From: a bacterium
GTDB taxonomy: Bacteria > Patescibacteriota > Minisyncoccia > Moranbacterales > UBA2206
Direction of reading: 5' to 3'
Length of the DNA: 64,000 nucleotides
Assembly (NCBI GenBank): GCA_029567195.1
Contig: JAKQLJ010000020.1
Span: 3,971-67,970 of the forward strand
The notes under the pieces were generated by a model. That model had not been told where the DNA came from and ran no database searches. It worked only from the letters and a program-made list of their open reading frames with translations. Both the position numbers and the translations under genes were made by a program. This document shows positions 1,097-61,773 of this stretch, in pieces; the first letter of the stretch is position 1, and each line of letters starts with the position of its first letter.

Positions 1097-1186
1097 ATCT
1101 TTTTTAATCCGAATCATTTAAGTCATTTTAAGTTAATTCCATCCTGTCTTTATGATAAGCTACTTTATTGGAATAACTTTTGTCTG

Positions 1187-1310
1187 TTGTCATTCCCGCG
1201 AAAGCCATGCCTACCGGCAGGCAGGCCTGCCTACCGGCAGGCAGGCGGGAATCCAGTCTTCATAATCTAGCTTGTTTTCTGGATTCCCAATCAAGTTGGG
1301 AATGACATCG
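1187..1310. repeat. Composite GC-rich palindromic element (intergenic copy): gtcattcccgcg + 2x tandem gcctaccggcaggcaggc + gggaatccag...ctggattcccaatcaagttgggaatgac
   Basis: The outer arms ttgtcattccc/gggaatgacatc are inverted repeats. An internal 20-bp unit is tandemly duplicated (1211-1230, 1231-1250). attcccaa-tcaag-ttgggaat is an 8-bp-stem hairpin. The same cores recur at 11805-11890, 55553-55640 and 56466-56523. Confidence 0.6.
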
Positions 1311-1341
1311 GGAAGAAACTTAATATGATTTTATTATCATT

Positions 1342-3102
1342 CTATTTTATCATGTATATTTTTCCGTAGATAATGGTTTTTTGGCTCTCTGGCAGGCTTA
1401 AATCGGAGTTTTGCGGTTTGTCTTTTTCTCCGCTTTTTATGTTTAAAGACGTGGTTTCTATGCGATATTCCCTCTGAAAATACATTTTTTCTCCTAAGGG
1501 GCTTTTTTCGTATAGCTCAATATTTTTATCTGGCACAACAAGATATACATTGCTAAACCGGCTTAGTTTTATTTTTTCCAAATCTTTGGAATTAAAGAAG
1601 TAAACAGCTTGTTTGCCGTAAAGAAAATTCAACGGTCCTGCCATCATTGACCAGCCGGATCCGGAAGCTTCCCTATCCATCAAAACCAAATCGGAGGAAC
1701 TGAAATGGCGGCTCATTTCTTCAGTCTGGGCCAGTAAATTCTGGTTTTCTTTTACCGGAAAATAAGGGATGAAAATAAAAAGATTTATTATAAGCAGGGC
1801 CAGGGACAGAAAATGGAAAAATATTCTTTTTCTTTCAAAAAATTTGTCCAACAACCAAACGGAATAGAAAATGGAAACGGGAACTATGGTAAAAACAAAT
1901 CTTCTGAGCATCCAAGGGTGGTCGGAAGAAATGCTGGGATTAATAAGATACAAAAAAGCCGGCGAAGATATGAGAAGGGGAAACAAGTTTTCGTAATGTT
2001 TGTTTTTTAAGGCGTAAAAAAGGGCGATGAAAGCGATAATAACAAAATCAAAAATGGCATAGACAAAAAGAACCTTGAAAACATAAAAAAAGGAGAAAAT
2101 ATTACCGGATGGCGTAGTAGTATTTGCCAGTGAACCGAAAAGACCCTTCAGAGCATTTAAATAGAAAGGGTAATTAACGTTGAAACTGAAAAGATAAAGA
2201 ACTATCAAAGAGGCAAAAGCTACAGCCATCCATTTTTTTCTCAAAATATTTCCAAAATCGTTCCAGCTCTTTTGTTTTATGCGGATAAGAAAGATGGCAA
2301 TAGCCAAAAAAGCCAAGCCTTCAATCCTGGTAAAGGCCAGAAAAAGAAAAGAAAGAAGGGCGGACGAGAGATGGAGAGTATGTTTTCTTTCCATAAAAAT
2401 GGAAAAATTCCACAGTCCAAACCAGAAAAGAAAAAGAGCCAGGTTTTCGCTCAGAGTAAATTTAAAAAACCAGGAAAAAACAAAAGAGGTGAGGACCAAA
2501 AGCCAGGCGACAAAAGAAGGATAAGTCTTTAAATAAATTCGGCTGAAAGAAAAAAAGAAAATAAGAAACAAAAATAAGGTAATCCCGTTGGCTAAAACAA
2601 GGCCGGAAAGGCCAAAAATTGAATAAAAAGAAGCCAGCCAGGAAATGTAGCCGATGGGAAAATGGGTTATTAACTGTCCGTCCGCGGTATAGTTAAAGCC
2701 GGGAAAATTAAGCGCTTTTCCAGGACCGTAAATATTAAAAAACTCCCGAGAAGCTGGAAAGCTGAATTTTAATTGATGTTTTTGAGAGAGCCTAATGGCG
2801 GCTTCCGAAAAAGAGCCTTGGTCGCGGCCGGAAAAAATAGTGGGAGAAACAAAGGAAGACAAAATGTATACAAACAACAGGGAAATTATGATAATAACGG
2901 AAAATTTCGCGTGTTTGTAAAAAAAACGCCAATTTTTTCCGAAAATAAAAAAAAGAACGGCAGATCCTAAAATTAAATAAGCGGTTAAAATTTGCCCGTA
3001 AAATAATCCAATGATTGTCATTAAAAGGCTTAAAAAAAGAAGCCCCAACCAAAAAAGTCCCAAAATAGCCAGCAATTGGTTTTTGCCAAAATTAAATTTC
3101 AT
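1342..3102 (-). CDS. Polytopic integral membrane protein, putative GT-C-fold glycosyltransferase
   Basis: 586 aa, more than 12 predicted hydrophobic helices throughout and no soluble domain. It sits beside the glycosylation locus. Confidence 0.45.
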   Translation of the reverse strand: MKFNFGKNQLLAILGLFWLGLLFLSLLMTIIGLFYGQILTAYLILGSAVLFFIFGKNWRFFYKHAKFSVIIIISLLFVYILSSFVSPTIFSGRDQGSFSEAAIRLSQKHQLKFSFPASREFFNIYGPGKALNFPGFNYTADGQLITHFPIGYISWLASFYSIFGLSGLVLANGITLFLFLIFFFSFSRIYLKTYPSFVAWLLVLTSFVFSWFFKFTLSENLALFLFWFGLWNFSIFMERKHTLHLSSALLSFLFLAFTRIEGLAFLAIAIFLIRIKQKSWNDFGNILRKKWMAVAFASLIVLYLFSFNVNYPFYLNALKGLFGSLANTTTPSGNIFSFFYVFKVLFVYAIFDFVIIAFIALFYALKNKHYENLFPLLISSPAFLYLINPSISSDHPWMLRRFVFTIVPVSIFYSVWLLDKFFERKRIFFHFLSLALLIINLFIFIPYFPVKENQNLLAQTEEMSRHFSSSDLVLMDREASGSGWSMMAGPLNFLYGKQAVYFFNSKDLEKIKLSRFSNVYLVVPDKNIELYEKSPLGEKMYFQREYRIETTSLNIKSGEKDKPQNSDLSLPESQKTIIYGKIYMIK

Positions 3103-3206
3103 ACCATTATTATAGCTTCAAAAAAGCTTTCTGCCAATAAGCCGCCCCTTTGCTAGAAGTTGGTTTTTAAGGTAGAATTGTAAAAGAAATAATTTATCAT
3201 TCAATT

Positions 3207-4385
3207 ATGAAAATATTGGTCATCGCGCCAACTCCTTTTTTTTCTGATCGGGGAACGCACATAAGAATATTGGAAGAAGCTCTGGCTCTGGAAAAATTGG
3301 GGCATGAAATTACCATCTCTACTTATCATATTGGGAAAAATATTGATCGGAGAATTAACACCAAGATAGATGTCAGAAGGATTTTGCGCCTTCTTTTTTG
3401 GTATAAAAAGCTGGAAGCGGGACCGGATTGGCAGAAAATAATTTTGGATATCATGCTTATCAGAAAAACTTTTTTTCTGGCCAGAACCAAAAAACCGGAC
3501 ATTATTCACGGCCATCTTCATGAAGGAGTGCTCATCGGCTGGATAGTAAAATACCTTCTTTTTTGGCGCAAGATTAAATTGGTGGCTGATTTCCATGGAA
3601 GCCTTACCGGGGAGATGCTTTCTCATGGCTATCTTAAACGCGGACTCAAGGGAATTTTCTCTCAGATTGAAAAATTTATCAATAAACGTGGCGATTATGC
3701 CATAACCAGTTCCTGGGAATGCACAAAGGATGTGAAAAAATCCAGAAAAGATGGTAAAATAGAAACAGTGCTGGATGGAATTAATCTCGACAGTTTTGTT
3801 TTTTCTTCAAAAAAAGAAGAGATGAAAAAAGAATGGGAAATTCCGGACGGAAAATTTATCGTTGGTTATACCGGGGGACTCATTCCCAATAAAGGAATCG
3901 ATTATCTTTTGAAAGCTATCCCTTTAGTCTTGGAAAAACGGAAGGATGTATTTTTTTTGATTGGCGGTTTTCCTCCGGAAGAAATAGAAAGATTCATAAA
4001 AGACAAAAAATTGGGAGAATTCGTCCGTTTGGTCAGTCCTTTGGATTATTTCCGCTTGCCTGAGTTTTTGCATATTTGCGACATTGCTATCGATCCCAAA
4101 GGCAGTGATACTAACCAAGCCAGCGGCAAGATGCTGAATTATATGGCAGCCGGACTGGCCGTTGTCTGTTTTGACAAAGTTAATAACCGGGAATATTTAG
4201 GTGAAGGGGGATATTTTTGTCGGGAGATGTCTCCTCTGGCTTTGGCCGAAGGGATTTTTTATTTTCTGGAAAAACCGGAAGAGGCGAAACAAAAAGGATT
4301 ATATAACAGGGAAAAAGCTAAAACTTTTAGTTGGGATGCTCCGGCTAAAAAAATTGAATTAATATATAATAAAATAAAAAGTTAA
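3207..4385 (+). CDS. Glycosyltransferase family 4 (GT-B, glycosyl transferase group 1)
   Basis: Motif YTGGLIPNKGIDYLLKAIPLV, and a C-terminal EGGYF...E/K pattern typical of GT4 donor-binding domains. Confidence 0.8.
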   Translation: MKILVIAPTPFFSDRGTHIRILEEALALEKLGHEITISTYHIGKNIDRRINTKIDVRRILRLLFWYKKLEAGPDWQKIILDIMLIRKTFFLARTKKPDIIHGHLHEGVLIGWIVKYLLFWRKIKLVADFHGSLTGEMLSHGYLKRGLKGIFSQIEKFINKRGDYAITSSWECTKDVKKSRKDGKIETVLDGINLDSFVFSSKKEEMKKEWEIPDGKFIVGYTGGLIPNKGIDYLLKAIPLVLEKRKDVFFLIGGFPPEEIERFIKDKKLGEFVRLVSPLDYFRLPEFLHICDIAIDPKGSDTNQASGKMLNYMAAGLAVVCFDKVNNREYLGEGGYFCREMSPLALAEGIFYFLEKPEEAKQKGLYNREKAKTFSWDAPAKKIELIYNKIKS

Positions 4386-4387
4386 CT

Positions 4388-5785
4388 ATGAAAAAAATCG
4401 CAAGGTATTTAGCCGAAAAGAAGGCAATTATTATAGGTTTGGTTATTTTTATCGCTATCTTTACAGCGGCCTTTTTCTTTGCCAGCGGCAACAAAAAGAT
4501 CATCGGGCTAAAATCCCTTTCTTTGGCCAGCAAAGTATCAAAATTTTTGCCTATTACCAAGGACGAGCAAAAAGAATTGGAAGTGGTCAATAAATTGGTG
4601 GAAACATTAAATAAAAAAGACGATCGCACCTGGACATTTATGATATTTCTCCAAAATAATATGGAGCTTCGTCCAGGCGGAGGATTTCTGGGCCAGTATG
4701 CGGTAGTAAAGATAAAAAACGGAGAAGTTATTTCCACTACCATTGAGGATGCCAATTTGTTGGACCAAAGAATCACTGCCAAAGTGGCTCCTCCCTATCC
4801 ATTTAAAAGAATGATGCAGATAAAAAGCTGGAAATTTAGAGATTCCAACTTTTCCCCCGATTTTCCAACTAACATTGAAAAAGCTAAATATTTTTATCGT
4901 TTGTCTGGAAGAGGCGGTGACTTTGACGGTTTTGTTGCTGTCAATACTGAAGTGTTCAATCATATTTTGGCTCTTACCGGTCCAATTACTGTTCCCGGAT
5001 ATTCAGGAGAATATAACAGCCGGGATGGAGCTTTAAAGCTGGAAGAATTTGTGGAAAAGCAATACATTATGAATCCGGAGCTGGACACCCAAAACCGAAA
5101 AATGATTCTTCAGAAAATGGGTCCAATGATAATTGAAAAACTTTTTACTCTTGGCAATGTGACTAAAATCGCTGAATTGGTGCACAATGATCTCAAAAAC
5201 AAGAATATAATGCTCAATTTTAAGGATCCCGCTCTTCAGTCCCAAGTGGAAAGCGTTTTTTGGGACGGCAAAGTGGCAACCGATTGGGGATCGGATTATT
5301 TGATGCTGGTGGATGCCAATATGGGGGCTTTAAAAACTGATTATTACATCAAGCGGGAAATTTCCTATGATGTTGATTTGACGGCAGAGAAGCCAACGGT
5401 TACCCTTAATATCAAATATAAAAATACTGCTCCTTACGGCGATTGGCGAACAAGCGATTATCACACCTTTCTTCGGGTTTACGTGCCGAAAGGATCGACT
5501 TTTTTGGAAAGAACCATGGTAGGTTATCCTAATATTGGAGAAGAATTCGGCAAAACTTATTTCGGGGTGATTGTCCATGTGCTTATAAATGGAGAAACAA
5601 ACGGAATGCTTAAATATGAGCTTCCGGCTGACTTTAACAAGGATGATTACCGGCTTTTGGTTCAGAAGCAATCAGGAGTGGGTGACGTGCCGATAAAAAT
5701 TCACCTGAAAACCAAAGACGGAGAATTTACCCAAGAATCAATTCTCAATCATGACACAAGATTTGAGTTTCAGAAGGGAAAATAA
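4388..5785 (+). CDS. Exported protein with N-terminal TM anchor; possibly DUF4012-like
   Basis: N-terminal helix IIGLVIFIAIFTAAFFFA, then a soluble domain with an LRPGGGFLGQYAVV motif. The family assignment is from memory only. Confidence 0.4.
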   Translation: MKKIARYLAEKKAIIIGLVIFIAIFTAAFFFASGNKKIIGLKSLSLASKVSKFLPITKDEQKELEVVNKLVETLNKKDDRTWTFMIFLQNNMELRPGGGFLGQYAVVKIKNGEVISTTIEDANLLDQRITAKVAPPYPFKRMMQIKSWKFRDSNFSPDFPTNIEKAKYFYRLSGRGGDFDGFVAVNTEVFNHILALTGPITVPGYSGEYNSRDGALKLEEFVEKQYIMNPELDTQNRKMILQKMGPMIIEKLFTLGNVTKIAELVHNDLKNKNIMLNFKDPALQSQVESVFWDGKVATDWGSDYLMLVDANMGALKTDYYIKREISYDVDLTAEKPTVTLNIKYKNTAPYGDWRTSDYHTFLRVYVPKGSTFLERTMVGYPNIGEEFGKTYFGVIVHVLINGETNGMLKYELPADFNKDDYRLLVQKQSGVGDVPIKIHLKTKDGEFTQESILNHDTRFEFQKGK

Positions 5786-5806
5786 TACTTAGAGTTTTTC
5801 AAAAGT

Positions 5807-6988
5807 ATGAAATCATTTCTGGTAAAACTCGGAAAAATATATAAGATGATCAGAAAAAACGGTCCTTGGAACGGATGCAGGATCGTTTTTATGTATGTCG
5901 GAATATTCATAAAAAGCCTTTTCGGAGTTAAGTCGGGAGATATCCTTATCATTACCGGCGGAGTGGGTGATAGCGCTTTTTATCGGGCCGGTAACCAAAA
6001 AGAAGAATTGAATATGCACGGTTTTCGCTGTTTTTCTACTATCACCGATAATCCTTTTCTTTTAAAATATGTTTCCCGGTTTAAAATTTTTATTTTTCAC
6101 CGAACAATTGTCACTCCTAAAATTGCCGCATTTTTGGAAGAAATAAAAAAAGCGAAAAAAGAGATAATTTTTGATACTGATGATCTGGTTTATGATATAA
6201 AATATTTTGAGAATACGGACAGCTATCAGAGTATGAACGCTTTGGAAAAACGCCAATATGAAAAAGGGGTGGGAGAGGAAATTGTGAAAGACGGTTATGT
6301 AAAAGTGGCTACAACTACCACCAGTTTTCTGGCCAACAAACTAAGGGAATCGGGGAAGATTGTTTATATTTCCAAAAATAAAATTTCCAACCACGAATTG
6401 GAGATAGCGGAAAAAATACGCCAAAATTTCAAGAAAAAAGAGGATGGGATTGTCAGAATCGGCTATTATAGCGGCACTATTTCCCACAATAAGGATTTTG
6501 CTTCCATTACTCCGGCGCTTATGAATATTTTAGAAAAGTATGAAAAGACGGAATTGCTTTTAGCCGGACCGCTGGACAGTGAAAACGAGCTGAATAAATT
6601 TAAGGACAGAGTTAAAAAGCTGCCTTTTGTGCCAAGGGATCAATATTATGAAAATCTTTATTTGTCTGATATCAATCTGGCTCCCTTGATTAAAGGCGAT
6701 CCTTTTTGCGAATCAAAATCGGAAATCAAATTTACGGAACCGGGAGTTTTGGGAGTGCCGACGGTGGCAATTAGGAATCAGACCTTTTCTGAAGCCATAG
6801 AAGACGGGGTGGACGGGTTTTTAGCGGACAATATTTCCGAATGGACAGAAAAAATATCCCGGTTAATTGAAAATGAAAATTTACGGCGGGAAATGGGAGA
6901 AAAAGCGCGGGAAAAAGTTTTACGCGAATATTCTAACAAAAATAGTCATAACGAGAAATATTACAATTATCTAAAAAGCAAATTATAA
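5807..6988 (+). CDS. Glycosyltransferase, GT4-like C-terminal domain
   Basis: C-terminal half FTEPGVLGVPTVAIRNQTFSEAIEDGVDGFLADN...EKAREKVLREYS matches the GT1/GT4 donor-binding domain. The N-terminus is divergent. Confidence 0.55.
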   Translation: MKSFLVKLGKIYKMIRKNGPWNGCRIVFMYVGIFIKSLFGVKSGDILIITGGVGDSAFYRAGNQKEELNMHGFRCFSTITDNPFLLKYVSRFKIFIFHRTIVTPKIAAFLEEIKKAKKEIIFDTDDLVYDIKYFENTDSYQSMNALEKRQYEKGVGEEIVKDGYVKVATTTTSFLANKLRESGKIVYISKNKISNHELEIAEKIRQNFKKKEDGIVRIGYYSGTISHNKDFASITPALMNILEKYEKTELLLAGPLDSENELNKFKDRVKKLPFVPRDQYYENLYLSDINLAPLIKGDPFCESKSEIKFTEPGVLGVPTVAIRNQTFSEAIEDGVDGFLADNISEWTEKISRLIENENLRREMGEKAREKVLREYSNKNSHNEKYYNYLKSKL

Positions 6989-7057
6989 GGTTAAAAAGGA
7001 TTATTGAAAATTAATTTTTTTTGAAAATTATAATTATTTAATAGTCAGAAGATAAAA

Positions 7058-8011
7058 ATGGCAACAATATTAATCACTGGCGGAGCGGGGTTTATCGGCT
7101 CGGCGTGCGCTAAAAAATTAATGGATAGAGGAGACAAGGTTGTTATAATTGATAATTTTAATAACTATTACGATCCGTCTTTAAAAGAAGCGAGAATTAA
7201 AAAATTTCTTAAAGGTTACAAGTTCAAGCTCTACCGTGGCGATATTCGGGATGCAAAACTAATTGAAAAAATATTCAGGAAAGAAAAAATTGACAAAGTT
7301 ATCCATCTGGCGGCTTTGGCCGGAGTGAGGAATTCTCTGCTGGATCCCAGAAGTTATTTTGATGTAAACGTCATGGGATCAATCAATCTTCTGGAAGCGG
7401 CGGTGAAATATAAAATAAAAAACTTTGTTTTTGCTTCCTCTTCTTCGGTTTATGGTAATAATAAAAAAACGCCCTTTTCGGAAAGTGATCCGGTGGATAC
7501 TCCCATTTCTCCTTATGCGGCCAGCAAAAAAACAGACGAGCTTATTGCCCACACTTATAGTCACATTTATGGACTCAATATTACGGCGTTAAGGTTTTTT
7601 ACCGTTTACGGCCCTTGGGGAAGGCCGGATATGGCGCTTTTTCTGTTTGCCGACGGGATAACCAGCGGAAAACCGATAAATGTTTTTAATCGCGGAAAAA
7701 TGAGCCGCAATTTTACCTATATTGATGACATCGTTTCCGGAACAATCACAGTCTTGGATAAGTGCCAGGGCTATGGCGTCATGAATATCGGCGGGGATAA
7801 AGAAGAGACGCTTATGCGTTACATCGAAGTTTTGGAAAAAAATCTTGGCAAAAAGGCCAAAAAAAATATGTTGCCAATGCAGCCGGGAGATGTGCCAAAA
7901 ACGGTTGCCGACATTAGAAGACTTAGAAAGCTCGGCTGGAAACCGACTACCAGAATCGAAAAAGGAATAGCTAATTTTGTGGAGTGGTATAAGAAATACT
8001 ACAATAAATGA
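7058..8011 (+). CDS. NAD-dependent epimerase/dehydratase, UDP-glucuronate 4-epimerase-like (Cap1J/Gla family)
   Basis: [12 protein letters not shown] Rossmann motif and YxxxK (YAASK). VYGPWGRPDMALF is the signature seen in UDP-GlcA 4-epimerases. Confidence 0.75.
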   Translation: MATILITGGAGFIGSACAKKLMDRGDKVVIIDNFNNYYDPSLKEARIKKFLKGYKFKLYRGDIRDAKLIEKIFRKEKIDKVIHLAALAGVRNSLLDPRSYFDVNVMGSINLLEAAVKYKIKNFVFASSSSVYGNNKKTPFSESDPVDTPISPYAASKKTDELIAHTYSHIYGLNITALRFFTVYGPWGRPDMALFLFADGITSGKPINVFNRGKMSRNFTYIDDIVSGTITVLDKCQGYGVMNIGGDKEETLMRYIEVLEKNLGKKAKKNMLPMQPGDVPKTVADIRRLRKLGWKPTTRIEKGIANFVEWYKKYYNK

Positions 8012-9276
8012 TCCAAAGGATAAAAAACAACGCTTTTGCCAGAAATAGCCTTATTCTTTTCATTGGCACAATGACAGCCAATGTCCTTAATTATGTTTTT
8101 CATTTGGTAATTGGAAGAATGGTTAGTGCTGAAGTTTATGGAGAAGTGGAATCTTTAGTCTCGCTTATTGCCATAATTTCCGTTCCGGCGGCGACGCTTA
8201 CCATGGTGGCCACAAAATTCAGTGCGGCCAACAAAGCCGAAAATGACAGGGTGGGAAGCAGTGAAATAATGAAATATTTCAACAGGAAAATTTTCGTCTA
8301 TGGCTTGCCTGTTTTTATTGTCGCTGTTGCGATTTCTCCTTTTATCAAGAATTTTTTAAAAATTGAAAGTGTCTGGCCGCTCATTCTGGTCTGGATTATG
8401 ATGTTTTTGTCTTTTTTGGCAGCTGTCACAAGTGGAATTATAAACGGCTGGCAAAAATTCAAAGATGCCAGCTGGATGGGAATTTTTTCAGCGGTTATAA
8501 AACTGGTGGCGGCTGTTTTTTTGGTTAAATTAGGCTTTGCAGTGAACGGAGTGATTGGCGGTTTTGCCTTGGGGGCGCTGGTATCATACGCATTGTCTCT
8601 TTATTTTCTCCGTTTCATTAAAGATGGGGAAAAAAATAACAAAAATACTGTTTCCAATACCAATTTTTTCCCCATAAAAAGATATATTATCCCGGTTTTT
8701 ATTGGAAATTTGGCCATAAATATTTTGAGCAATGCCGATATGGTTCTGGCCAAACATAATCTGGATTCTATTTCAGCCGGCCAATACGGAGCGTTGACGG
8801 TGGTTTCTAAAGTTATTTTTTTTGCCACCGGTATCATTGGCACGGTTCTTTTCTCCATGTCAGCGGAAGATAACCACAAAAAAAATAATTCCAAGTCGAC
8901 ATTTAAACACGCTTTCTGCTTGATGTCAGTTGTGTCGGCAGGAGCGATTTTTTTCTATCTGCTATTTCCTGAATTTATTCTGGCGATGCTGTTTGGCGAT
9001 AAATATCGGGACGTTTCCAACTATCTTATCTGGTTTGCCATATCGGTAACTCTTTTCTCTTTTGTTAACTTGGTTTTTCAGTATCTTATTTCCATTCATA
9101 AAACAGATATCGCCTATGTTCTTTTGGTCGTTTCTGTCTTGGCCTCTCTGGCCGTCTTATTTGTAGGGCGCGGTATTTTTGCTATAATAAGCATAATGAT
9201 AACGGCCCAAGCTTCCGCTCTGATTTTGGGTGCTTATTATGTCTATAAAAATAGGAAAGAAGCCTATGGAAGATAA
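8008..9276 (+). CDS. Polysaccharide biosynthesis protein / oligosaccharide flippase (Wzx, MOP superfamily)
   Basis: 422 aa with ~12 TM helices, and an N-terminus NSLILFIGTMTANVLNYVFHLVIGRMVSAEVYG typical of the Wzx/RfbX family. ATGA start/stop overlap with the upstream epimerase. Confidence 0.75.
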   Translation: MIQRIKNNAFARNSLILFIGTMTANVLNYVFHLVIGRMVSAEVYGEVESLVSLIAIISVPAATLTMVATKFSAANKAENDRVGSSEIMKYFNRKIFVYGLPVFIVAVAISPFIKNFLKIESVWPLILVWIMMFLSFLAAVTSGIINGWQKFKDASWMGIFSAVIKLVAAVFLVKLGFAVNGVIGGFALGALVSYALSLYFLRFIKDGEKNNKNTVSNTNFFPIKRYIIPVFIGNLAINILSNADMVLAKHNLDSISAGQYGALTVVSKVIFFATGIIGTVLFSMSAEDNHKKNNSKSTFKHAFCLMSVVSAGAIFFYLLFPEFILAMLFGDKYRDVSNYLIWFAISVTLFSFVNLVFQYLISIHKTDIAYVLLVVSVLASLAVLFVGRGIFAIISIMITAQASALILGAYYVYKNRKEAYGR

Positions 9277-10204
9277 AAAAATCATTTCTATCATCACTCC
9301 GGTTTATAATGAGGAAAAAAATATCCCCATTTTTTATGCGGAGCTTCAAAAAGTTGTTAACTCTATGGATAAGTATGATTTTGAACTGATTTTTGTAAAT
9401 GACGGCAGTCGGGACAAAAGCCTGGAAGAATTAAGAAAAATGGAAAAGGAAGATGAAAGAGTGATGGTTATTGACTTGTCTCGAAACTTCGGCAAAGAAA
9501 TTGCCACCACTGCCGGAATAAACCATTGTCGGGGTGAAGCCTGTATTATGCTTGATAGCGATCTCCAACACCCGGTGGAAAAAATTCCTGAATTTGTTTC
9601 CAAGTGGGAAAATGGAGCGGAAGTGGTTATAGGAGTGCGAAAGAAAAATAATGGGGAAGGATTAGTGAAAAAAATGGGATCATTTTTCTTTTATAAAATC
9701 ATCAATCGCATATCGGATACTAAAGTTATGTCTAATGCCACTGATTATCGCCTTTTGGACAGGATGGTGATAAATGAGTTCAATAAGTTAACGGAAAAAA
9801 ACCGGATGACAAGAGCGCTTATCGATTGGCTGGGCTTCAAAAGAGAATATATTTATTTTGAGGCCAGGCCTAGAATTCATGGGGAAGCCGGATATAGTTT
9901 TTGGAAGCTAATGAGGCTGGCTTTTAACAGCATGATTTCGCTCAGCATTTTTCCTCTTCGTATTGCCGGATATCTGGGCATTATTATTACCATTTTTTCG
10001 GGCGTTTTGGGCTTATTTATTTTTATAACCAACTATGTGACAGAGAGTCTTGATTTTTCTGGTCCGGCTATTTTGGCGGTAGTGATTCTTTTTCTTATCG
10101 GCATTGTCCTTATTTGCCTCGGACTCATTGCGCTCTATATCGCTAACATCCATTCGGAAGTAAACAATCGGCCGCTTTATGTTGTGAGAAGATCCAGAAA
10201 GTAG
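9266..10204 (+). CDS. GT2 polyprenyl-phosphate glycosyltransferase (GtrB/ArnC/DPM1-like)
   Basis: ISIITPVYNEEKNI...IFVNDGSRDKS...LDSDLQHP, plus two C-terminal TM helices. The start is moved to the ATG at 9266 (MEDKK) rather than the overlapping 9230. Confidence 0.75.
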   Translation: MEDKKIISIITPVYNEEKNIPIFYAELQKVVNSMDKYDFELIFVNDGSRDKSLEELRKMEKEDERVMVIDLSRNFGKEIATTAGINHCRGEACIMLDSDLQHPVEKIPEFVSKWENGAEVVIGVRKKNNGEGLVKKMGSFFFYKIINRISDTKVMSNATDYRLLDRMVINEFNKLTEKNRMTRALIDWLGFKREYIYFEARPRIHGEAGYSFWKLMRLAFNSMISLSIFPLRIAGYLGIIITIFSGVLGLFIFITNYVTESLDFSGPAILAVVILFLIGIVLICLGLIALYIANIHSEVNNRPLYVVRRSRK

Positions 10205-10219
10205 CTTAGACCAACTTTC

Positions 10220-11203
10220 ATGATTAAATACAGTTTTATAATTCCTGTTAAGGAAATAAACGATTATATTCGGGAGTCCATCCCGAAGATTTTGGAAATT
10301 TCCCGGGAGGATTATGAAATAATAATATATCCTGACAATGAGAGCTCGGAATCATGGCCAAAGACAAGGCAAATTGCCAGCGGTCCGGGAGGGCCGGCGA
10401 TGAAAAGGGGGCTGGCAATGAGAGACGCGTTGGGGGATTTTTTGATTTTTATAGACGACGATGCTTTTCCCGAAAATGACATATTAGAAAAGTTAGACGG
10501 CGATTTTTCTGATGAGAAAATAGCGGCCGTCGGCGGTCCGGCAATTACGCCTAGGAATAACAGTTTTTTACAGAAAGTTTCCGGCGGGGTTTATCTGAGC
10601 AATTTAGGAGGAAATTTTCCGGAAAGATATTGCTCTATTGGCAAAAAGAGATTGGTCAGCGACTGGCCAACCGTAAATTTATCTGTTCGAAAAAAAGTTT
10701 TTTTGGAAGTAGGCGGTTTTGACTGCAGTTTTTGGCCGGGAGAGGATACAAAATTCTGTCTGGATATAATCAACAAGCTTGAAAAAAACAACAAGATTCT
10801 CTATGACCCGGAAATTATAGTTTGGCATCATCGAAGAGAGGGGCTGTTGAGGCATCTGAAACAAGTTGCCGGCTATGGTATTCATCGGGGTTTTTTCGCT
10901 AAAAAATATCCTAAAACCTCTTTTAAATTCCGATATTTTGTGCCAAGTTTTTTCTTTTTGTTTGTGGCTTTCGGCTGGCTGACAGTTTTTCTTTCTCCTT
11001 GGATTTTTAAACTTTATCTTTTTGGTTGGATTATATACGGTCTGGCTCTGGTTAAGGTTTTTTTTGATATCACTCGGCGCCAGAAAAATGTTTTAGTCGC
11101 TCTTTATTCTCTGGTTTATGTTTTTTTCACGCATTTGGTTTATGGAGCCAGATTTATACAAGGATTTTTTTATACTAAAGAATTAAAAAGTAAGCTTAGA
11201 TAA
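10220..11203 (+). CDS. Glycosyltransferase family 2 with C-terminal membrane anchor
   Basis: SFIIPVKEIN...IFIDDDAFPEND (DxD), then hydrophobic C-terminal helices. Confidence 0.7.
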   Translation: MIKYSFIIPVKEINDYIRESIPKILEISREDYEIIIYPDNESSESWPKTRQIASGPGGPAMKRGLAMRDALGDFLIFIDDDAFPENDILEKLDGDFSDEKIAAVGGPAITPRNNSFLQKVSGGVYLSNLGGNFPERYCSIGKKRLVSDWPTVNLSVRKKVFLEVGGFDCSFWPGEDTKFCLDIINKLEKNNKILYDPEIIVWHHRREGLLRHLKQVAGYGIHRGFFAKKYPKTSFKFRYFVPSFFFLFVAFGWLTVFLSPWIFKLYLFGWIIYGLALVKVFFDITRRQKNVLVALYSLVYVFFTHLVYGARFIQGFFYTKELKSKLR

Positions 11204-56955: not shown

Positions 56956-57789
56956 TTATAACGGGCTTTTGATGTTTTGCAAATTATTATTGGCCACTTT
57001 CGTGTAAATCTGGGTTGTTTCCAGCTTGGCATGCCCTAAAAGCGTCTGGATATATCTTATATCAGTTCCACCTTCCAGTAAATGCGTGGCAAAAGAGTGG
57101 CGAAGAGAATGGCAAGAGGCGCATTTTTTTATGCCTGAATTTTTGAGCGCTTCAGCAAAAACCTTTTGTGCGGTTCGTTCCGTCAGTTTGCCTCCGCGAT
57201 CTGATTCAAAAACATAATTATCCGCGTTTTTATTTTTTACATATTTTCGCAGAACATTGATTATTTTTTCCGACAAAATAGTCGTTCTGTCTTTTGCGCC
57301 TTTAGCGCCGCGGATAAATAATAATTTACCGTCAAAATCAAAATTTTTCACTTTTACGCTCACAACTTCTGATACTCGCAATCCTGATGAATACATAAGT
57401 CCCATCATTAGTTTATGTTTGACGCTTAAAATAGTTCCCAGAATTTTCCTAATTTCCTCTTTTGTAAAAACTTCCGGTATTTTCTTGGGTTTTTTGGCGC
57501 GAGGAATATTGGCAAAAAACCGGCGGCGGAGTATTTTTTCAAAATAAAATCGGAGGGCGCTATAAGCGGTGTTTAGTGTTGAGGCGGATTTGCTGTCATC
57601 TACCAACTTTTCCAAATAATTCCGTAAATCCTGGGCGTTGATATTCCTGGGATTTTTATTTGCGAACTTTAAGGCGGCTGTTATATAATAAAGATAAGAT
57701 TCGACAGTTCTGGGACTAAAATGCCGCAGTTTCATCTCCTGTTTTAATTGATAAACCGGATCCTTGCTAGGGTAATAATTTCCATTCAT
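56956..57789 (-). CDS. Tyrosine site-specific recombinase (Xer-like, 277 aa), divergent from cassette array
   Basis: Catalytic residues are in order: SGLRVSEV (Arg), GAKGAKDR (Lys), HSLRHSFAT (HxxR), LLGHAKLETTQIYTKV (His and the Tyr nucleophile). Confidence 0.8.
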   Translation of the reverse strand: MNGNYYPSKDPVYQLKQEMKLRHFSPRTVESYLYYITAALKFANKNPRNINAQDLRNYLEKLVDDSKSASTLNTAYSALRFYFEKILRRRFFANIPRAKKPKKIPEVFTKEEIRKILGTILSVKHKLMMGLMYSSGLRVSEVVSVKVKNFDFDGKLLFIRGAKGAKDRTTILSEKIINVLRKYVKNKNADNYVFESDRGGKLTERTAQKVFAEALKNSGIKKCASCHSLRHSFATHLLEGGTDIRYIQTLLGHAKLETTQIYTKVANNNLQNIKSPL

Positions 57790-57839
57790 ACCCTCTTATG
57801 ATTAGAAATTTATATTCTAATTTTAGCACAATTAAAGTA

Positions 57840-57885
57840 TATTTTAAAACAATTCGCATATAAGAAGTTATCGGAAATAAATTAA
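57840..57885 (+). other. Putative attI-like recombination site (caaTTCGCATataagaaGTTATCGGAAATA)
   Basis: Lies between the recombinase start and the first cassette gene. It contains a GTT triplet followed by the same 13-mer, GTTATCGGAAATA, found at cassette junction 60901-60913. The TTCGCAT...GTT half resembles the right arms of the downstream attC-like sites. Confidence 0.4.
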
Positions 57886-57897
57886 AAACCTCAACCT

Positions 57898-58323
57898 ATG
57901 AAGAGATTAAAATGTAATGTCGGCGAATATGGCGTAATCGTAAATCAACGAGAAGAATTTTTGATTTTAAGACTCCCCCTAAACAAAGAGTTTGCCAAAG
58001 AAATGTGGATGTTCCCGGGTGGCCGACTTGATGCTGATGACCAACCTGAGCTTGGCTTACAGCGTGAAGTACTAGAAGAAACCAGCCTTAAAATAAAAAT
58101 TATCGCTCCTGTTCACGTCGCCAGATGGGGAATTGAGAATCCGTCGAAGTACTCGGTATTTTTTCTATGTCGTTTAATTGGCAAGCAGGAAGTAAAGATC
58201 AGCCACGAACATATTGAAAGCAAATGGATAAAATTTAGTGATATAGAAAAAATCCCTTGGCATAATATTAACAGTAAGCTAGCAGCAAAAAAATCAAAAA
58301 TTCTCCTGGCGAAAGGTTTTTAA
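57898..58323 (+). CDS. Nudix hydrolase (cassette 1)
   Basis: Nudix box GGRLDADDQPELGLQREVLEETSL (Gx5Ex7REVxEE). Confidence 0.7.
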   Translation: MKRLKCNVGEYGVIVNQREEFLILRLPLNKEFAKEMWMFPGGRLDADDQPELGLQREVLEETSLKIKIIAPVHVARWGIENPSKYSVFFLCRLIGKQEVKISHEHIESKWIKFSDIEKIPWHNINSKLAAKKSKILLAKGF

Positions 58324-58330
58324 TTTACAT

Positions 58331-58406
58331 CCGATAACACGCGATATCCAAAATTTACTACGTTGCACTTTAGTAAACTTCGGATATCGCGGATACGTTA
58401 TCTGAA
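58331..58406 (+). other. attC-like imperfect palindrome 1 (gatAAC-a-cgcgatatcc...ggatatcgcg-gatac-GTTatctgaaat)
   Basis: 10-bp L-type stem with an extended outer stem (aaatttacta/tagtaaa). 5'-AAC is 1 nt from the stem and GTT-3' is 5 nt from it. It directly follows the stop codon. Confidence 0.5.
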
Positions 58407-58428
58407 ATTGCAAAAAGCTTTCTAAAAA

Positions 58429-58980
58429 ATGATAAAAAAACCAAAAAGGATAATCATTGTTCCCAGCAACGACATCAATCCTCTGAACCAGCTATCAAAT
58501 ACTCATACATTGTTGAGATGTAAGGACGCTTTGAAGCTATGGAAAACAAATGGGTTTGATTTTATCGTAACTTCTGGAGGTTGCTACTACAACAAAAAAG
58601 TACAAACTATACCCGCCGCTGACATAATGAAGAGTTGGTTTGTTTCAAATGAAGTTCCTGAGGCTCAAATTATCAGTGAGAATAAATCGCTTGATACTTA
58701 CACTAACCTTCATTATTCGTTGAAATTATTGAAAGATAGCAACATCACTCTTGGTAATTTAGCTATTGTCAGTCATTGGACACACCTGACCAGAATAAAA
58801 ATAATTTTGTGGCGAAATTATAAAATCAAACCCGTTTGTTTTCCCGTTGAGTATAAACTGTCTTTTGCTGAATGGCTACATGAATTTTTTTGGTTTTTTT
58901 ATCATTTTTTAGACAAAACAGGCGATGGATTTCTGGAAAGAAAGATTCGCAAAATGGTTGAGGTTAGAGCTTCTTCGTAG
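58429..58980 (+). CDS. DUF218 (YdcF/ElyC-like) domain protein (cassette 2)
   Basis: IIIVPSNDINPLN...IVTSGG...IISENKSLDTYTNLHYS matches the DUF218 pattern (GG...E...S.nT.eN). Confidence 0.5.
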   Translation: MIKKPKRIIIVPSNDINPLNQLSNTHTLLRCKDALKLWKTNGFDFIVTSGGCYYNKKVQTIPAADIMKSWFVSNEVPEAQIISENKSLDTYTNLHYSLKLLKDSNITLGNLAIVSHWTHLTRIKIILWRNYKIKPVCFPVEYKLSFAEWLHEFFWFFYHFLDKTGDGFLERKIRKMVEVRASS

Positions 58981-58994
58981 GAGCTTTTTGCAAC

Positions 58995-59178
58995 ATCAGA
59001 TAACACGGCACATGCGGTTCATCCCGCCCTTTCATTTTTATATCAAGGTATGGCGGGACTCTCCCAAATTGCGCTGACGATATGGCTAGCTTAGTGATAT
59101 AATCAAGTAAAGCGAAATTAACAAATTTAATCAATAATCCACGGCGCAACTTCGCATGTGCCGAAACGTTGAGCGAAA
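58995..59178 (+). other. attC-like imperfect palindrome 2 (agatAAC-a-cggcacatgcg...cgcatgtgccg-aaac-GTTgagcgaaat)
   Basis: 11-bp stem, internal 7-bp hairpin (tcccgcc...ggcggga). GTTGAGC fits GTTRRRY. Confidence 0.5.
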
Positions 59179-59232
59179 TAATAATAAATTTTCCTTTTAA
59201 CTAAGACAGTTCAATTCCGGTCATTTTCTTAT

Positions 59233-59712
59233 ATGCAGAAAAAAATCAAATATTTAAAATCTTTACCAAGCAAAACCGTGGCAGTAGGTGTTTTATTGTT
59301 TGATAGAAATAATCAACTTCTAGTCTTGAAGCCTGGGTACAAGGATTGCTGGACAATCCCAGGCGGTATTGTAGAAAAACTTGAATCGCCGAATATAGCT
59401 GCAATACGAGAAGCAAAAGAAGAAGTTGGCTTAGCTATTAAGCTTGTTCAATGTATTGGCGTTGATTATTTGTCATACCAACTCGCAGATTATAAAGGTG
59501 AAAGTTTGCATATTATTTTCATTGGCAATCGCTTATCAAGCAAAGATGTTAATAATATTCATATTGATGGTAAGGAAATTATTGAATACAAATTTGTTGA
59601 TTTTAAAGATGCGGTAAAAATGATTGACCCGCTTCTTTCTAGAAGGCTAAGGGGATTGCATAAAAAGCTCAACAAATTTGTGTTTATGGAAAACGGGATA
59701 AGGAAAGCGTAA
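59233..59712 (+). CDS. Nudix hydrolase (cassette 3)
   Basis: Nudix box GGIVEKLESPNIAAIREAKEEVGL. Confidence 0.7.
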   Translation: MQKKIKYLKSLPSKTVAVGVLLFDRNNQLLVLKPGYKDCWTIPGGIVEKLESPNIAAIREAKEEVGLAIKLVQCIGVDYLSYQLADYKGESLHIIFIGNRLSSKDVNNIHIDGKEIIEYKFVDFKDAVKMIDPLLSRRLRGLHKKLNKFVFMENGIRKA

Positions 59713-59767
59713 AAGAAAATGACCCGAATTGAATTACAAATAAGGAATGAAAAATTTATTATTACAT

Positions 59768-59903
59768 CGCCCAACATCGAGTATGGGGTAAAAATATTTA
59801 CCTTTTAGTAATTTAATAGATGAACGTAAAATATTTTTGACCCAAATTCTGTTTCGTTTCACTTCAACAGAACTTCCCATACTCGAAAACGTTAAACGAA
59901 ATT
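59768..59903 (+). other. attC-like imperfect palindrome 3 (gcccAAC-a-tcgagtatggg...cccatactcga-aaac-GTTaaacgaaat)
   Basis: 11-bp stem whose sequence differs from site 2 but keeps identical spacer geometry (1 nt / 4 nt). GTTAAAC fits GTTRRRY. Confidence 0.5.
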
Positions 59904-59912
59904 TTGAAAAAT

Positions 59913-60287
59913 ATGGATTTATCGCAATTAAAAAACGGCAAATATTTTAGAGGGCACTACACTGACCGTGGTGAATATAGAGGGTGGTTTTGTGGATCGT
60001 TTTTAAAAGAAAATCACCCCGGAAAAACGGAACAATTGGAAATAAAATACGCTGAACATAAAAAGGGAGACATCGAAAAGCCGCACTATCATCAAAAAAT
60101 GATTGAAGTATTAATTTTTTTGGAGGGGAAGGCTAAATTTAACGTAAATGGAGAAAATGTTATGCTCGGCAAGGGTGATTTTCTTTTTGTGGATGTGAAC
60201 AATATCATTTCCGGAGAGTTCCTTGAACCCTCTAAAATATTTGCTTTGCATACCCCAAGCCTTCCTGATGATGAAGTATTTGTGTAG
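59913..60287 (+). CDS. Cupin-domain protein (cassette 4)
   Basis: HYHQKMIEVLIFLEGKAKFNVNGENVMLGKGDFLFV is a cupin motif pair. ATG at 59913 is preferred over the TTG at 59904. Confidence 0.6.
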   Translation: MDLSQLKNGKYFRGHYTDRGEYRGWFCGSFLKENHPGKTEQLEIKYAEHKKGDIEKPHYHQKMIEVLIFLEGKAKFNVNGENVMLGKGDFLFVDVNNIISGEFLEPSKIFALHTPSLPDDEVFV

Positions 60288-60304
60288 TAATATTTTTCAA
60301 AACA

Positions 60305-60460
60305 TCGCCTAACACAACATATCCGGCTCATCCCACCTTTCATTTTTATTATTCAAAGTATGGCGGAATTCACCCAAATTGCCGATTTTCTTTTCATTCT
60401 ATATACTTAAATCAAGGTAAAAATCGGCAACTTCGCATGTGCCGAAACGTTATGCGAATT
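60305..60460 (+). other. attC-like imperfect palindrome 4 (gccTAAC...caacttcgcatgtgccg-aaac-GTTatgcgaatt)
   Basis: The right arm is nearly identical to site 2. The left arm is degenerate (acaacatatccgg). It has a GCCTAAC R''-like box. Confidence 0.45.
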
Positions 60461-60510
60461 TTCTTTTAAATTATTTTTTGCTCTTTGGAAACCACAAGAA
60501 GGAGGATGCC

Positions 60511-60732
60511 ATGAAATTCAGTACTATTGCAAGGGTTGTTGTTATTGGCGTATCTTGCATCATAGTTGGATACGTCATGCTAAAGGTGTTCGAGGCTAAT
60601 TGTCGCGAGGGGCTAACTAAGACGAATCATGAGCTTGCTCACTTGGAAAGCATGACTCCGGAAAAATACTACCAGGAGGTGAGGGAGAAGCTTATTCTTC
60701 AAAGAGATAACTACGAGCAAGCACTTAAGTAA
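60511..60732 (+). CDS. Small membrane protein, 73 aa (cassette 5)
   Basis: Strong RBS aggagg 6 nt upstream of the ATG at 60511. One TM helix (VVVIGVSCIIVGYVML). The track ORF start at 60439 lies inside the attC-like site and is unlikely to be real. Confidence 0.45.
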   Translation: MKFSTIARVVVIGVSCIIVGYVMLKVFEANCREGLTKTNHELAHLESMTPEKYYQEVREKLILQRDNYEQALK

Positions 60733-60879
60733 ACAAGGGGTGGCTTTCCCAAGGAGGCCACCCATTCATTCTTAGCAAAAAATTTTTCAAAATGAAACTC
60801 AAGGGACATTGCGCTTTTGCCCCACTCAAATTTTGTGCCCTTTTCTTTCTTTTATATTATAATAAGGAAGAAAGACAAA

Positions 60880-60915
60880 AACTTCGGATGATGCGTAAAC
60901 GTTATCGGAAATACT
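60880..60915 (+). other. Cassette junction with right-arm-only attC remnant (aacttcggatgatgcgtaaac-GTTATCGGAAATA)
   Basis: The 13-mer after GTT is identical to the attI-like site 57867-57879. No matching left arm was found. A ggggtggc...gccaccc hairpin upstream at 60737-60763 may be a terminator. Confidence 0.35.
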
Positions 60916-60936
60916 TAATTTTTTAATTTCAAAATT

Positions 60937-61194
60937 ATGGATAATAAAAAATTAGCAGAATATATTATGGCTATTTCTAATTTTAAGTGTATACGTGCTG
61001 AGGATAGAATTACATTGAATTCATATTTGGCTGATTCTGCAAAGATACTTGCAAAAATAGAGCTTAATCTTCCTCTCGAAAACGATATTGATAATCATGA
61101 AAAGTTGTGGGGGCATACTTGGCTGATTGATGGAAATAGCCATGAAGTTTTATATAAAAAGTGGTCTGATTTCAAAGAATCTTTAAAAAATTAA
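60937..61194 (+). CDS. Hypothetical protein, 85 aa (cassette 6)
   Basis: ORF directly after the junction site. No motifs recognized. Confidence 0.4.
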   Translation: MDNKKLAEYIMAISNFKCIRAEDRITLNSYLADSAKILAKIELNLPLENDIDNHEKLWGHTWLIDGNSHEVLYKKWSDFKESLKN

Positions 61195-61295
61195 GCGCAT
61201 TCTATAATACCCAATATTTAGTTCCACAAAAGAGAAAAATCCGCATAATTTTTTCATTTTGAATTGAGCTTTTTTTATGATTTTTTACCAAAATA

Positions 61296-61318
61296 AAACC
61301 CCGGGCATTGCTCGGGGC
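61296..61318 (-). terminator. Rho-independent terminator (minus strand): ccccgagcaatgcccgggg + TTTTATTTTGG
   Basis: A 5-bp GC stem followed by a T-run on the minus strand, immediately 3' of ORF 61336-61557. Confidence 0.5.
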
Positions 61319-61335
61319 GAAGAGAACCGTGGAAG

Positions 61336-61557
61336 TTACGAACGGTTATGGTCAATGATTTGCCGAAGCGCTTCCGGCACATTATATTGCGGAAACTCAT
61401 CTGATAATTCACGAACTATCTCTGACGAAAGTTTGGTCGTACGTGCGTATCTATGCGTATACTCACTCCTAATCTTGATTTCTATCAGTATCGGAGCGGA
61501 CGTACGTCCTTCCTGTTTCTGCTGCTCTGCAAGAGCATTAAATTGATCAAAATACAT
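61336..61557 (-). CDS. Hypothetical small protein, 73 aa, in locally GC-rich (~50%) segment
   Basis: RBS aaggagg 7 nt upstream. Its composition is clearly distinct from the flanks. Confidence 0.45.
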   Translation of the reverse strand: MYFDQFNALAEQQKQEGRTSAPILIEIKIRSEYTHRYARTTKLSSEIVRELSDEFPQYNVPEALRQIIDHNRS

Positions 61558-61773
61558 CGCTGTCCTCCTTGGCTGGATGATTTTTTACGGAACTACATCA
61601 ACGTAATAGGATAGCATAAAATAACATTCCTGTCAAATGCCGTTGGCAAAAAATTATAAAAAAGCTCTTAAATTAAGGAAATTATACGGATTTTTCTTTT
61701 TCACTCCACTCAAATTTTCTATTAATCGCTAATCCTTCTTTCTAAAGCCCGAAACGGGAAAATAAATTTAAAA

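Follow-up and report, generated by a model that had tools for sequence, protein, structure and literature searches.

Whether gene cassettes can be gathered in the manner of an integron by a recombinase that is not an integron integrase (IntI) is the question raised by a locus in the 64,000-nucleotide (nt) stretch of DNA analysed here and called the window throughout (positions 3,971 to 67,970 of contig JAKQLJ010000020.1, GenBank assembly GCA_029567195.1; G + C content 37.6%), which derives from a bacterium of the Moranbacterales within the Patescibacteriota. In this locus a gene coding for a tyrosine recombinase of 277 amino acids (aa) is divergent from a series of small genes that are separated by imperfect palindromes. 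Full-text literature searches returned no description of integrons or cassette arrays in Patescibacteria or the candidate phyla radiation (CPR), and in the text of the IntegronFinder 2.0 survey the word 'Patescibacteria' does not occur, its sole 'Candidatus' being Candidatus Nitrospira inopinata. The locus is most probably a sedentary chromosomal gene-cassette platform which resembles an integron in its working while consisting of different parts, and whose recombinase belongs to a clade lying between the XerA proteins and the integron integrases.

Architecture of the locus

The features of the locus are listed below. Relatives were scanned at 103 loci comprising 703 kb, to which some further loci were added, and L-numbers are the labels of the loci of relatives.

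56956-57789, minus strand: tyrosine recombinase of 277 aa (Pfam PF00589, Phage_integrase, and PF13495, Phage_int_SAM_4)
57790-57850, no strand assigned: spacer from the recombinase start codon to attI, with motifs kept in position across L001, L012, L013, L092, L095, L097, L107 and L108
57851-57878, plus strand: dif-like attI core of 28 base pairs (bp), AATTCGCATAT-AAGAAG-TTATCGGAAAT, in 11-6-11 layout
57868-58397, plus strand: cassette 1, with a Nudix hydrolase open reading frame (ORF; 57898-58323, Pfam NUDIX) and site s1 (58327-58408)
58398-59168, plus strand: cassette 2, with a DUF218 ORF (58429-58980) and site s2 (58993-59179)
59169-59891, plus strand: cassette 3, with a Nudix hydrolase ORF (59233-59712) and site s3 (59764-59902)
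59892-60449, plus strand: cassette 4, with a cupin ORF (59904-60287) and site s4 (60302-60460)
60450-60901, plus strand: cassette 5, with a small membrane protein (60511-60732) and the 3' half-site s5 (60880-60912)
60902-61757, plus strand: distal decayed cassette, with an 85-aa ORF (60937-61194) and an inverted module carrying a minus-strand 73-aa ORF (61336-61557)

In agreement with the original prediction, the minus-strand recombinase is accompanied by six co-oriented plus-strand ORFs with the domains claimed for them (Pfam), and the palindromes begin with AAC and end with GTT, two of these ends fitting GTTRRRY (GTTGAGC in s2 and GTTAAAC in s3). That a palindrome follows each ORF proved correct for the first four, whose sites s1 to s4 span 82-187 nt from the R'' extension to the R' extension with AAC 5' and GTT 3' in each, while the fifth ORF is followed by a 3' half-site only and the sixth by a decayed site. 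Nor does the array end at 61200, as had been proposed, but it extends to this decayed site, which terminates at CCCGAAAC|GGG near 61757.

The attI core adjoins the recombinase gene and the cassettes are co-oriented on the opposite strand, which is the layout of an integron. In the window, attI lies 78 nt upstream of the recombinase ATG (78-79 nt in all close homologues), and the consensus among these close homologues is A(A/G)TTCG(C/G)ATAT-AAC(T)(A/T)G-TTnnnnGAAAT, the left arm and the GTT being conserved and the 4 nt after the GTT varying with the first cassette. Since cassette 1 starts directly after the GTT of this conserved recombinase-side site, the crossover is fixed at G|TT, in the window after G57867, and an exchange on the R'' side is excluded. 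The spacer contains TATGATTAGAAATTTATA and an AATTnTAGC motif, and the reverse complement of TATGATTAGAAATTTATA is predicted to provide a TATAAA -10-like box together with the ribosome-binding site of the recombinase gene.

With respect to the boxes of the sites, AAC and GTT alone are invariant, and RYYYAAC and GTTRRRY fit in about half of the sites (in the window two of the four R'' boxes, GCCCAAC and GCCTAAC, and the two of the five R' boxes named above). The sites share a 5' motif, ACATC-N4-AAC-A-[L'', 10 nt], and a 3' motif, AACTTC-[L', 10 nt]-(N)AAAC-GTT-N4-GAAAT, and site sequences recur between genomes at 76-88% identity: the 3' part of s2 has a counterpart among the sites of L012 (88%), and s3 has one in the Falkowbacteria locus L098 (76%). 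The 3' half of s4 is identical to that of s2, and its L stem is imperfect, with 6 Watson-Crick and 3 wobble or A.C positions out of 10. In the long sites (59040-59110 and 60350-60410 in the window, and sites of L012) there is in addition a conserved inner module similar to CCACCCAAATTGCGC.

Towards the end of the array, cassette 5 codes for a small membrane protein whose true start is probably the ATG at 60511, and it carries a terminator-like hairpin at 60738-60763. No 5' half of s5 was found by half-site models or by folding, the region having a z score of about -1 and no fold. At its two ends (61215-61289 and 61601-61717) the distal module matches those of cassette 2 of L012 (521-1258 on the reverse complement of 1-8000), with an identity of 79-84%. 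In this L012 cassette the site halves are 691 nt apart with a perfect L''/L' pair, and a minus-strand gene resides inside the attC loop, flanked by a 24-nt inverted repeat, GCAAAAGAGAAAAATCTGTATAAT; the sequence at 61195-61757 of the window, around the minus-strand ORF, is a decayed homologue of this loop-gene module.

Specificity of the sites

Half-site hidden Markov models (HMMs) were trained on 13 sites beside homologous recombinases at six other loci, with the window sequence excluded. In the 64-kb window they matched the 5' half of four sites, with E 1e-5 to 0.03, and the 3' half of five (E 4e-9 to 5e-4; 2e-6 for s5), all on the plus strand between 58.3 and 60.9 kb; the next best match had E > 0.1, and these models revealed no further sites elsewhere in the window. 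Half-site models were used because a covariance model built from the same 13 sites cannot span sites longer than about 100 nt; it matched s1 with 41 bits (E 2.7e-9; L stem 10/10), and of s2-s5 it found halves only. A generic scanner for AAC...GTT stems, which gave about 12 chance matches per 64 kb at 9/10 pairing, was replaced by the HMMs.

Among the relatives, all matches with E < 0.01 lay within arrays, either beside recombinases sharing 47% identity or more with the query, or on contigs carrying the window's own array, and the sites of the arrays were always located upstream of, and antisense to, the recombinase gene. A profile scan of metagenomes gave mostly distant Xer-like relatives of 33-48% identity, which were used as negative controls, and at about 70 loci with Xer-like relatives of 33-42% identity there was not a single site match. 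The same arrangement as in the window was found at the additional loci L107-L109 and in the more distant sister group L014-L016.

It might be argued that we are dealing with common intrinsic terminators, or with repeated extragenic palindromes, beside which a recombinase gene is present by coincidence, given that the sites are hairpins following stop codons and that one true terminator-like hairpin, the one in cassette 5, is indeed present. However, s1-s4 have no T-run, none of the sites has an Rfam match (scans for tRNAs and tandem repeats being likewise negative or irrelevant), and their strict association with a single recombinase clade, always in the same position and orientation, would be left without an explanation, as would the pairing of the R arms with the start of their own cassette and the gain of a cassette at attI between strains, both described below. 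This explanation is therefore extremely improbable.

Cassette variation between relatives

The platform recurs with different cargo genes in the related genomes examined, with the exception of L017, where there are no sites. From one genome to another the cassettes code for essentially unrelated proteins, in contrast to the conserved recombinase, attI and attC-like sites. On the level of strains, an identical recombinase is encoded at the loci L092, L093 and L094, where the genes downstream (scpA, scpB and others) are also the same and those upstream differ. In particular, L093 has one extra cassette at attI when compared to L092: cassette 2 of L093 aligns to cassette 1 of L092 from the GTT exactly, the flanks being 86-95% identical, and the subsequent cassettes differ. 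Beyond this strain pair, no cassettes common to different genomes were found that could be taken as evidence of transfer.

In a number of independent assemblies (L001-L003, L010, L011, L094, L100, L101, L103, L110 and L111) the contigs stop inside the arrays or about 100-360 nt upstream of the recombinase gene; such breaks fit with repeats, as exemplified by the sequence shared by s2 and s4, or with strain heterogeneity. As to the content of other arrays, the final cassette of L107 (5374-5846) codes for a HicA toxin / DUF7387 pair; large chromosomal integrons often contain cassettes of the toxin-antitoxin kind.

Folding of the sites and the circular-cassette signature

In integrons, whatever comes after G|TT is already part of the next cassette. 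The R'' arm of a site is therefore expected to be complementary to the beginning of the cassette that carries it, rather than to the sequence next to the site in the array. The 4 variable nt that precede AAC were compared in 19 sites from seven arrays (76 positions): 69 positions pair with the beginning of the cassette to which the site belongs, in contrast to 37 with the adjacent sequence; when the same bases were re-paired at random in 10,000 permutations, the mean was 35.5 and the maximum 52. Judged from these sequences, the own-start pairing is the signature of excised circular cassettes with a crossover at G|TT. In DNA folds, the circle form, in which a cassette is joined to its own R', is more stable than the array form.

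The L stems of the 19 sites are Watson-Crick paired at 172 of 190 positions in spite of having at least 12 different sequences, and therefore covary; this L''/L' covariation, without any conserved sequence, extends over distances of 60-690 nt. Non-Watson-Crick positions in the R stems are A.C in 30 cases and G.T in one when read on the top strand, so that mismatches of the top strand become G.T wobbles on the bottom strand. Of 18 sites folded with DNA energy parameters, all 18 were more stable as the bottom strand (means -26.2 versus -22.3 kcal/mol; -24.8 versus -19.5 kcal/mol for s1), and the z scores of the DNA folds of s1-s4 range from -3 to -7.

Compared to attI, the R''-L'' arm corresponds to the other strand of an attI-like core in an exact 11-6-11 layout (ACATCCGATAA-CACGCG-ATATCCAAAAT in s1), and the L'-R' arm has 4-5 extra bases (AAAC, ATAC or GATAC) immediately 5' of GTT. 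We read this as indicating that folding of the bottom strand would restore a duplex similar to attI, bulged next to the position of AA|C cleavage.

Taken as a duplex, the 5' half can be read as an attI-like site of 28 bp in inverted orientation, with 6 bp in its centre, which also lends itself to a different explanation, namely that the sites are double-stranded Xer sites bounding modules, as in the pdif modules of Acinetobacter, which recombine by two-strand exchange without any folding. Yet a covariation of L'' and L' over such distances without conserved sequence calls for intramolecular pairing, and the excess of A.C over G.T by 30:1 is unexplained for a duplex substrate. Furthermore, the central regions differ between sites and a complete double-strand exchange would consequently leave mismatches, and the 3' half, which is in direct orientation, has a centre of 10-11 nt instead of 6. 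Exchange between unfolded duplex sites is thus hardly to be expected, and the folded bottom strand remains the form of the site assumed in the cassette platform proposed here.

The recombinase

The six catalytic residues of the recombinase (R138, K163, H227, R230, H253 and Y262) are invariant in 20 homologues, and the protein is, as far as can be told from its sequence, intact and intermediate between Xer and IntI; it is predicted to act on the sites described above, catalysis included. An identical protein at NCBI is labelled Candidatus Moranbacteria and stems from a metagenome-reconstructed genome, and there are many homologues at 64-84% identity with the source names Moranbacteria, Falkowbacteria, Parcubacteria and Patescibacteria.

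Family models place the protein between the known groups. It passes the NCBIfam model XerA_Arch marginally (227.5 bits, cut-off 220) and stays below the cut-offs of the integron integrase model TIGR02249 (224.4 bits against 265, with the match split in two stretches) and of the integron-integrase model NF011946 / PRK15417 (153.9 bits against 435) as well as of the XerC and XerD models (199 and 196 bits, cut-offs 335 and 330). Its N-terminal domain is better described by PF13495 (5e-17) than by PF02899 (2e-9; Pfam), and its C-terminal SPL motif aligns to VchIntIA. By sequence, the best match in the PDB is the XerA protein of P. abyssi (4A8E, 1e-44, in one stretch), and VchIntIA (2A3V) matches with 5e-43 in two stretches; by fold, VchIntIA is the best match of the AlphaFold model (7e-17), with XerA narrowly behind (2e-16). 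Among the plasmid matches listed, which are a spread sample of the ranking, IntI1 forms the majority (31% identity, E 2e-41).

In the alignment with 2A3V, the 16 residues 185-200 of the recombinase replace the 59 residues 182-240 of VchIntIA, which include the IntI-specific domain. The additional domain around patch III, which is characteristic of canonical integron integrases, is thus absent, and in line with this the AlphaFold2 model (predicted local distance difference test score, pLDDT, 83) has only short strands and no extra helix at the position of the insertion.

In a rough, bootstrapped neighbour-joining distance tree, for which the PDB sequences were transcribed from printed alignments and in which the deep nodes are weak, the close homologues form a clade of their own (100% bootstrap) which is joined by L013 at 99% and has L014-L016 as sister group. 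This group is separate from the IntI clade (100% support) and from XerC and XerD of E. coli, so that, within the limits of such a tree, a Patescibacteria-wide clade of recombinases appears to be placed between archaeal XerA and the integron integrases.

Could the locus nevertheless be an integron of the canonical kind, in which both IntI and the attC sites are genuine and would be called by standard tools? The architecture, the AAC and GTT ends, the crossover at G|TT, the G after AAC on the bottom strand, the bottom-strand bias and the fold match to VchIntIA would all be accounted for. However, the scores under TIGR02249 and PRK15417 (224 versus 265 and 154 versus 435 bits), the missing additional domain, the separation from the IntI clade and the fit of RYYYAAC and GTTRRRY in only about half of the sites argue against it, as does the position of the unpaired bases, since in canonical attC sites the extrahelical bases are on the R''-L'' arm (PMC2727003), i.e. 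opposite to the arm that carries them here. Because of the missing insertion, the scores under the cut-offs and the unpaired bases on the opposite arm, the system was therefore not assigned to the canonical integrons, and the probability that it belongs there is very low. The data rather support an integron analogue built on a different recombinase lineage outside the canonical integron family.

Primary function of the recombinase

A more serious rival, although a partial one, is that the recombinase is a housekeeping resolvase of chromosome dimers and a putative member of the 'Cand' subgroup, with attI being the chromosomal dif site and the cassettes being small non-autonomous elements that exploit Xer, enter dif in the form of folded hairpins like CTX phages and accumulate in tandem. 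This overlaps with the cassette platform and does not exclude it, the difference between the two lying in what the primary function of the recombinase is. In its favour, attI is laid out 11-6-11 like dif, 15 of its 22 arm positions agree with E. coli dif, the score under XerA_Arch exceeds the cut-off (227.5 versus 220 bits), and recombinase identity is high across CPR classes. Smyshlyaev et al. (2021) assigned Xer-related recombinases from candidate phyla to a 'Cand' subgroup and suggested that groups of this kind may stand in for a missing Xer (PMC8138268); the membership of the recombinase in this subgroup is putative. In line with a housekeeping function would also be the proximity of the site. 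In single-recombinase Xer systems such as XerS/difSL, the target site adjoins the recombinase gene.

The chromosomal context in relatives, however, does not look like that of a terminus. In L095, L012, L107 and L108 the GC skew keeps its sign across the locus, and the site is therefore not at a skew switch there; the local genes diverge from the site instead of converging on it; and the chromosomal neighbours of the recombinase gene vary by genome (tmk, scpA, smpB, glycosyltransferases, macB and uvrC). The better fit of the N-terminal domain to PF13495 than to PF02899 and the alignment of the SPL motif to VchIntIA likewise point away from a housekeeping Xer. In the window itself the GC skew is +0.1 to +0.2 over 1-50 kb and then near zero for at least 22 kb, up to 73 kb when the window is joined with L101. 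On balance, a housekeeping resolvase is an unlikely but by no means negligible explanation.

The original prediction had named an ordinary XerC/D beside a dif site as the finding that would contradict it. The recombinase is not an ordinary XerC or XerD, as the phylogeny called for by that prediction and the model scores agree, but the adjoining site itself is dif-like with an 11-6-11 layout, and XerA is marginally passed. The absence of the IntI insertion was seen as foretold, bulged hairpins do form on the bottom strand with a stability exceeding that of the top strand in every site folded, and cassette content does vary at the GTT junctions between the strains L092 and L093 with their identical recombinase. 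All refutation tests that were run thus favoured an integron analogue on a different recombinase clade.

A model of cassette exchange and the points that weigh against it

In the model that we propose for the cassette platform, a cassette would consist of a single small gene and an attC-like site, the bottom strand of which would fold into a hairpin that re-creates the attI duplex. In this hairpin, ATTTCnnnnAAC would pair with GTTnnnnGATGT as the R stem, and an L stem no shorter than 10 bp would lie on the other side of an unpaired, asymmetric spacer, to which the cleaved arm contributes 4-5 nt and the opposite arm 1 nt. From its binding place on the right arm, the recombinase would cut the bottom strand between AA and C, one strand would be exchanged between the double-stranded attI and the folded single-stranded attC, and replication would resolve the product, as in integrons and in the integration of CTX phages at dif. 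Cassettes would in this way enter at attI as TT...G units, and recombination between two attC-like sites may excise them as circles.

Several observations weigh against this model. The extra unpaired bases are on the L'-R' arm, opposite to where they belong by definition in a canonical attC (PMC2727003). In canonical integrons the additional domain of IntI contacts the extrahelical bases and has been reported to be necessary for activity (cited in PMC9668308), and it is this domain that the recombinase of the window lacks. The conservation of the clade at 65-84% identity across Moranbacteria, Falkowbacteria and Parcubacteria, taken together with the marginal pass under XerA, fits a housekeeping Xer equally well. 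At L017, with a recombinase (8001-8783) of 48-49% identity, no attI- or attC-like sites were detected in the 8-kb upstream flank. Finally, s4, s5 and the distal module look degenerate, and parts of the array in the window may therefore be frozen. As regards L017, its recombinase groups near the site-bearing clades in the rough tree.

Comparison with known systems

As in the sedentary chromosomal integrons, attI adjoins the recombinase gene, from which an array of single-gene cassettes without apparent promoters diverges. Shared as well are cassette ends in the form of imperfect AAC...GTT palindromes, a G|TT crossover and an R' deriving from the cassette's own circle, a conservation of structure rather than of sequence, a bottom strand that folds better and has a G after AAC, and the recurrence of related attC sequences within the lineage together with a hypervariable cassette content, L107 even ending with a toxin-antitoxin cassette. 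Unlike in integrons, the recombinase is devoid of the additional domain, remains below the integrase cut-offs and falls into a clade of its own. In the sites, the asymmetric unpaired spacer has 1 nt on the R''-L'' arm and 4-5 nt on the L'-R' arm, and the R stems, which contain a conserved internal mismatch, reach 11-12 bp. Further differences are that attI consists simply of a dif-like core of 28 bp and that the hosts are Patescibacteria.

CTX phages and other integrative mobile elements exploiting Xer (IMEX) use a single-stranded hairpin which mimics the dif duplex and has a central bulge, and they integrate by exchange of one strand, with replicative resolution and accumulation in tandem. 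A hairpin mimic of attI and a single-strand logic would be common to both, the latter being deduced here from sequence. In contrast to these elements, the cassettes contain no phage or replication genes (Pfam) and are units of 450-1900 bp with one or two genes, and the site adjoins the recombinase gene and is not at the GC-skew switch in four genomes.

Protein length, a two-domain fold and a 28-bp target in 11-6-11 layout are reminiscent of the single-recombinase Xer systems (XerA/dif, XerS/difSL, XerH/difH and the 'Cand' group, PMC8138268), from which the locus differs by its variable cassette array and folded sites, by a location that is not terminus-like, and by an N-terminal domain of the SAM_4 type and an SPL motif, which it shares with IntI. 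Small gene modules between Xer-type sites are also found in the pdif modules of Acinetobacter plasmids, where, however, alternating inverted double-stranded XerC/D sites take the place of the hairpin-forming sites in direct orientation, the covarying stems and the dedicated recombinase observed here.

Significance

More generally, the chances appear to us to be even that this patescibacterial recombinase clade, which includes proteins entered in the databases as 'XerD' or tyrosine recombinase, comprises the integrases of a second integron lineage, either independent or ancestral, in which genes are captured by folded single-stranded sites without the I2/additional domain and with a dif-like attI, and which would represent a living intermediate between Xer/dif and IntI/attC. 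If a Xer-like enzyme without this domain does run a cassette system across Patescibacteria, the capture of genes by folded single-stranded sites would have arisen earlier, or evolve more readily, than has been assumed; a natural intermediate would make it possible to test how IntI/attC evolved from Xer/dif; and ultra-small, host-dependent bacteria would possess a dedicated route for the acquisition of accessory genes. Integrons are defined by IntI with its extra domain, and as detection tools separate IntI from Xer by that domain, they would not call this recombinase an integron integrase, and surveys based on IntegronFinder would then underestimate cassette systems. In Archaea, attC sites have been found in 75 genomes together with only six IntIs (PMC9668308), and such a second lineage could also explain attC arrays without IntI there and elsewhere. 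The compact pair of recombinase and site might moreover be of use for engineering.

Promoter-like sequences and genomic surroundings

Promoter-like boxes with an extended -10 are present at 59074-59103 (CTGACG-18-TATAAT, inside s2) and at 60379-60407 (TTGCCG-17-TATACT), both aimed at the next cassette, so that cassettes may supply promoters for their downstream neighbours. A further promoter-like match (TTGCGA-18-TATAAT, 57660-57689, plus strand), identified by its match to the consensus only, is located within the coding region of the recombinase and points to attI and the cassettes, a placement reminiscent of the Pc promoter of class 1 integrons.

In L108 (5900-12238), the recombinase gene and three cassettes are situated between two genes of equal length (417 aa) coding for MacB_PCD/FtsX permeases, which suggests either that the platform was inserted into a duplicated or split transporter locus or that a local duplication took place. 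In L110, a reverse transcriptase gene (RVT_1, 10083-11059) is found about 9 kb downstream of the recombinase gene beside a bAvd-like gene, in an arrangement resembling a diversity-generating retroelement. The stretch from 50 to 73 kb, comprising the window and L101, contains many genes for glycosyltransferases and surface polysaccharides as well as scattered small GIY-YIG ORFs.

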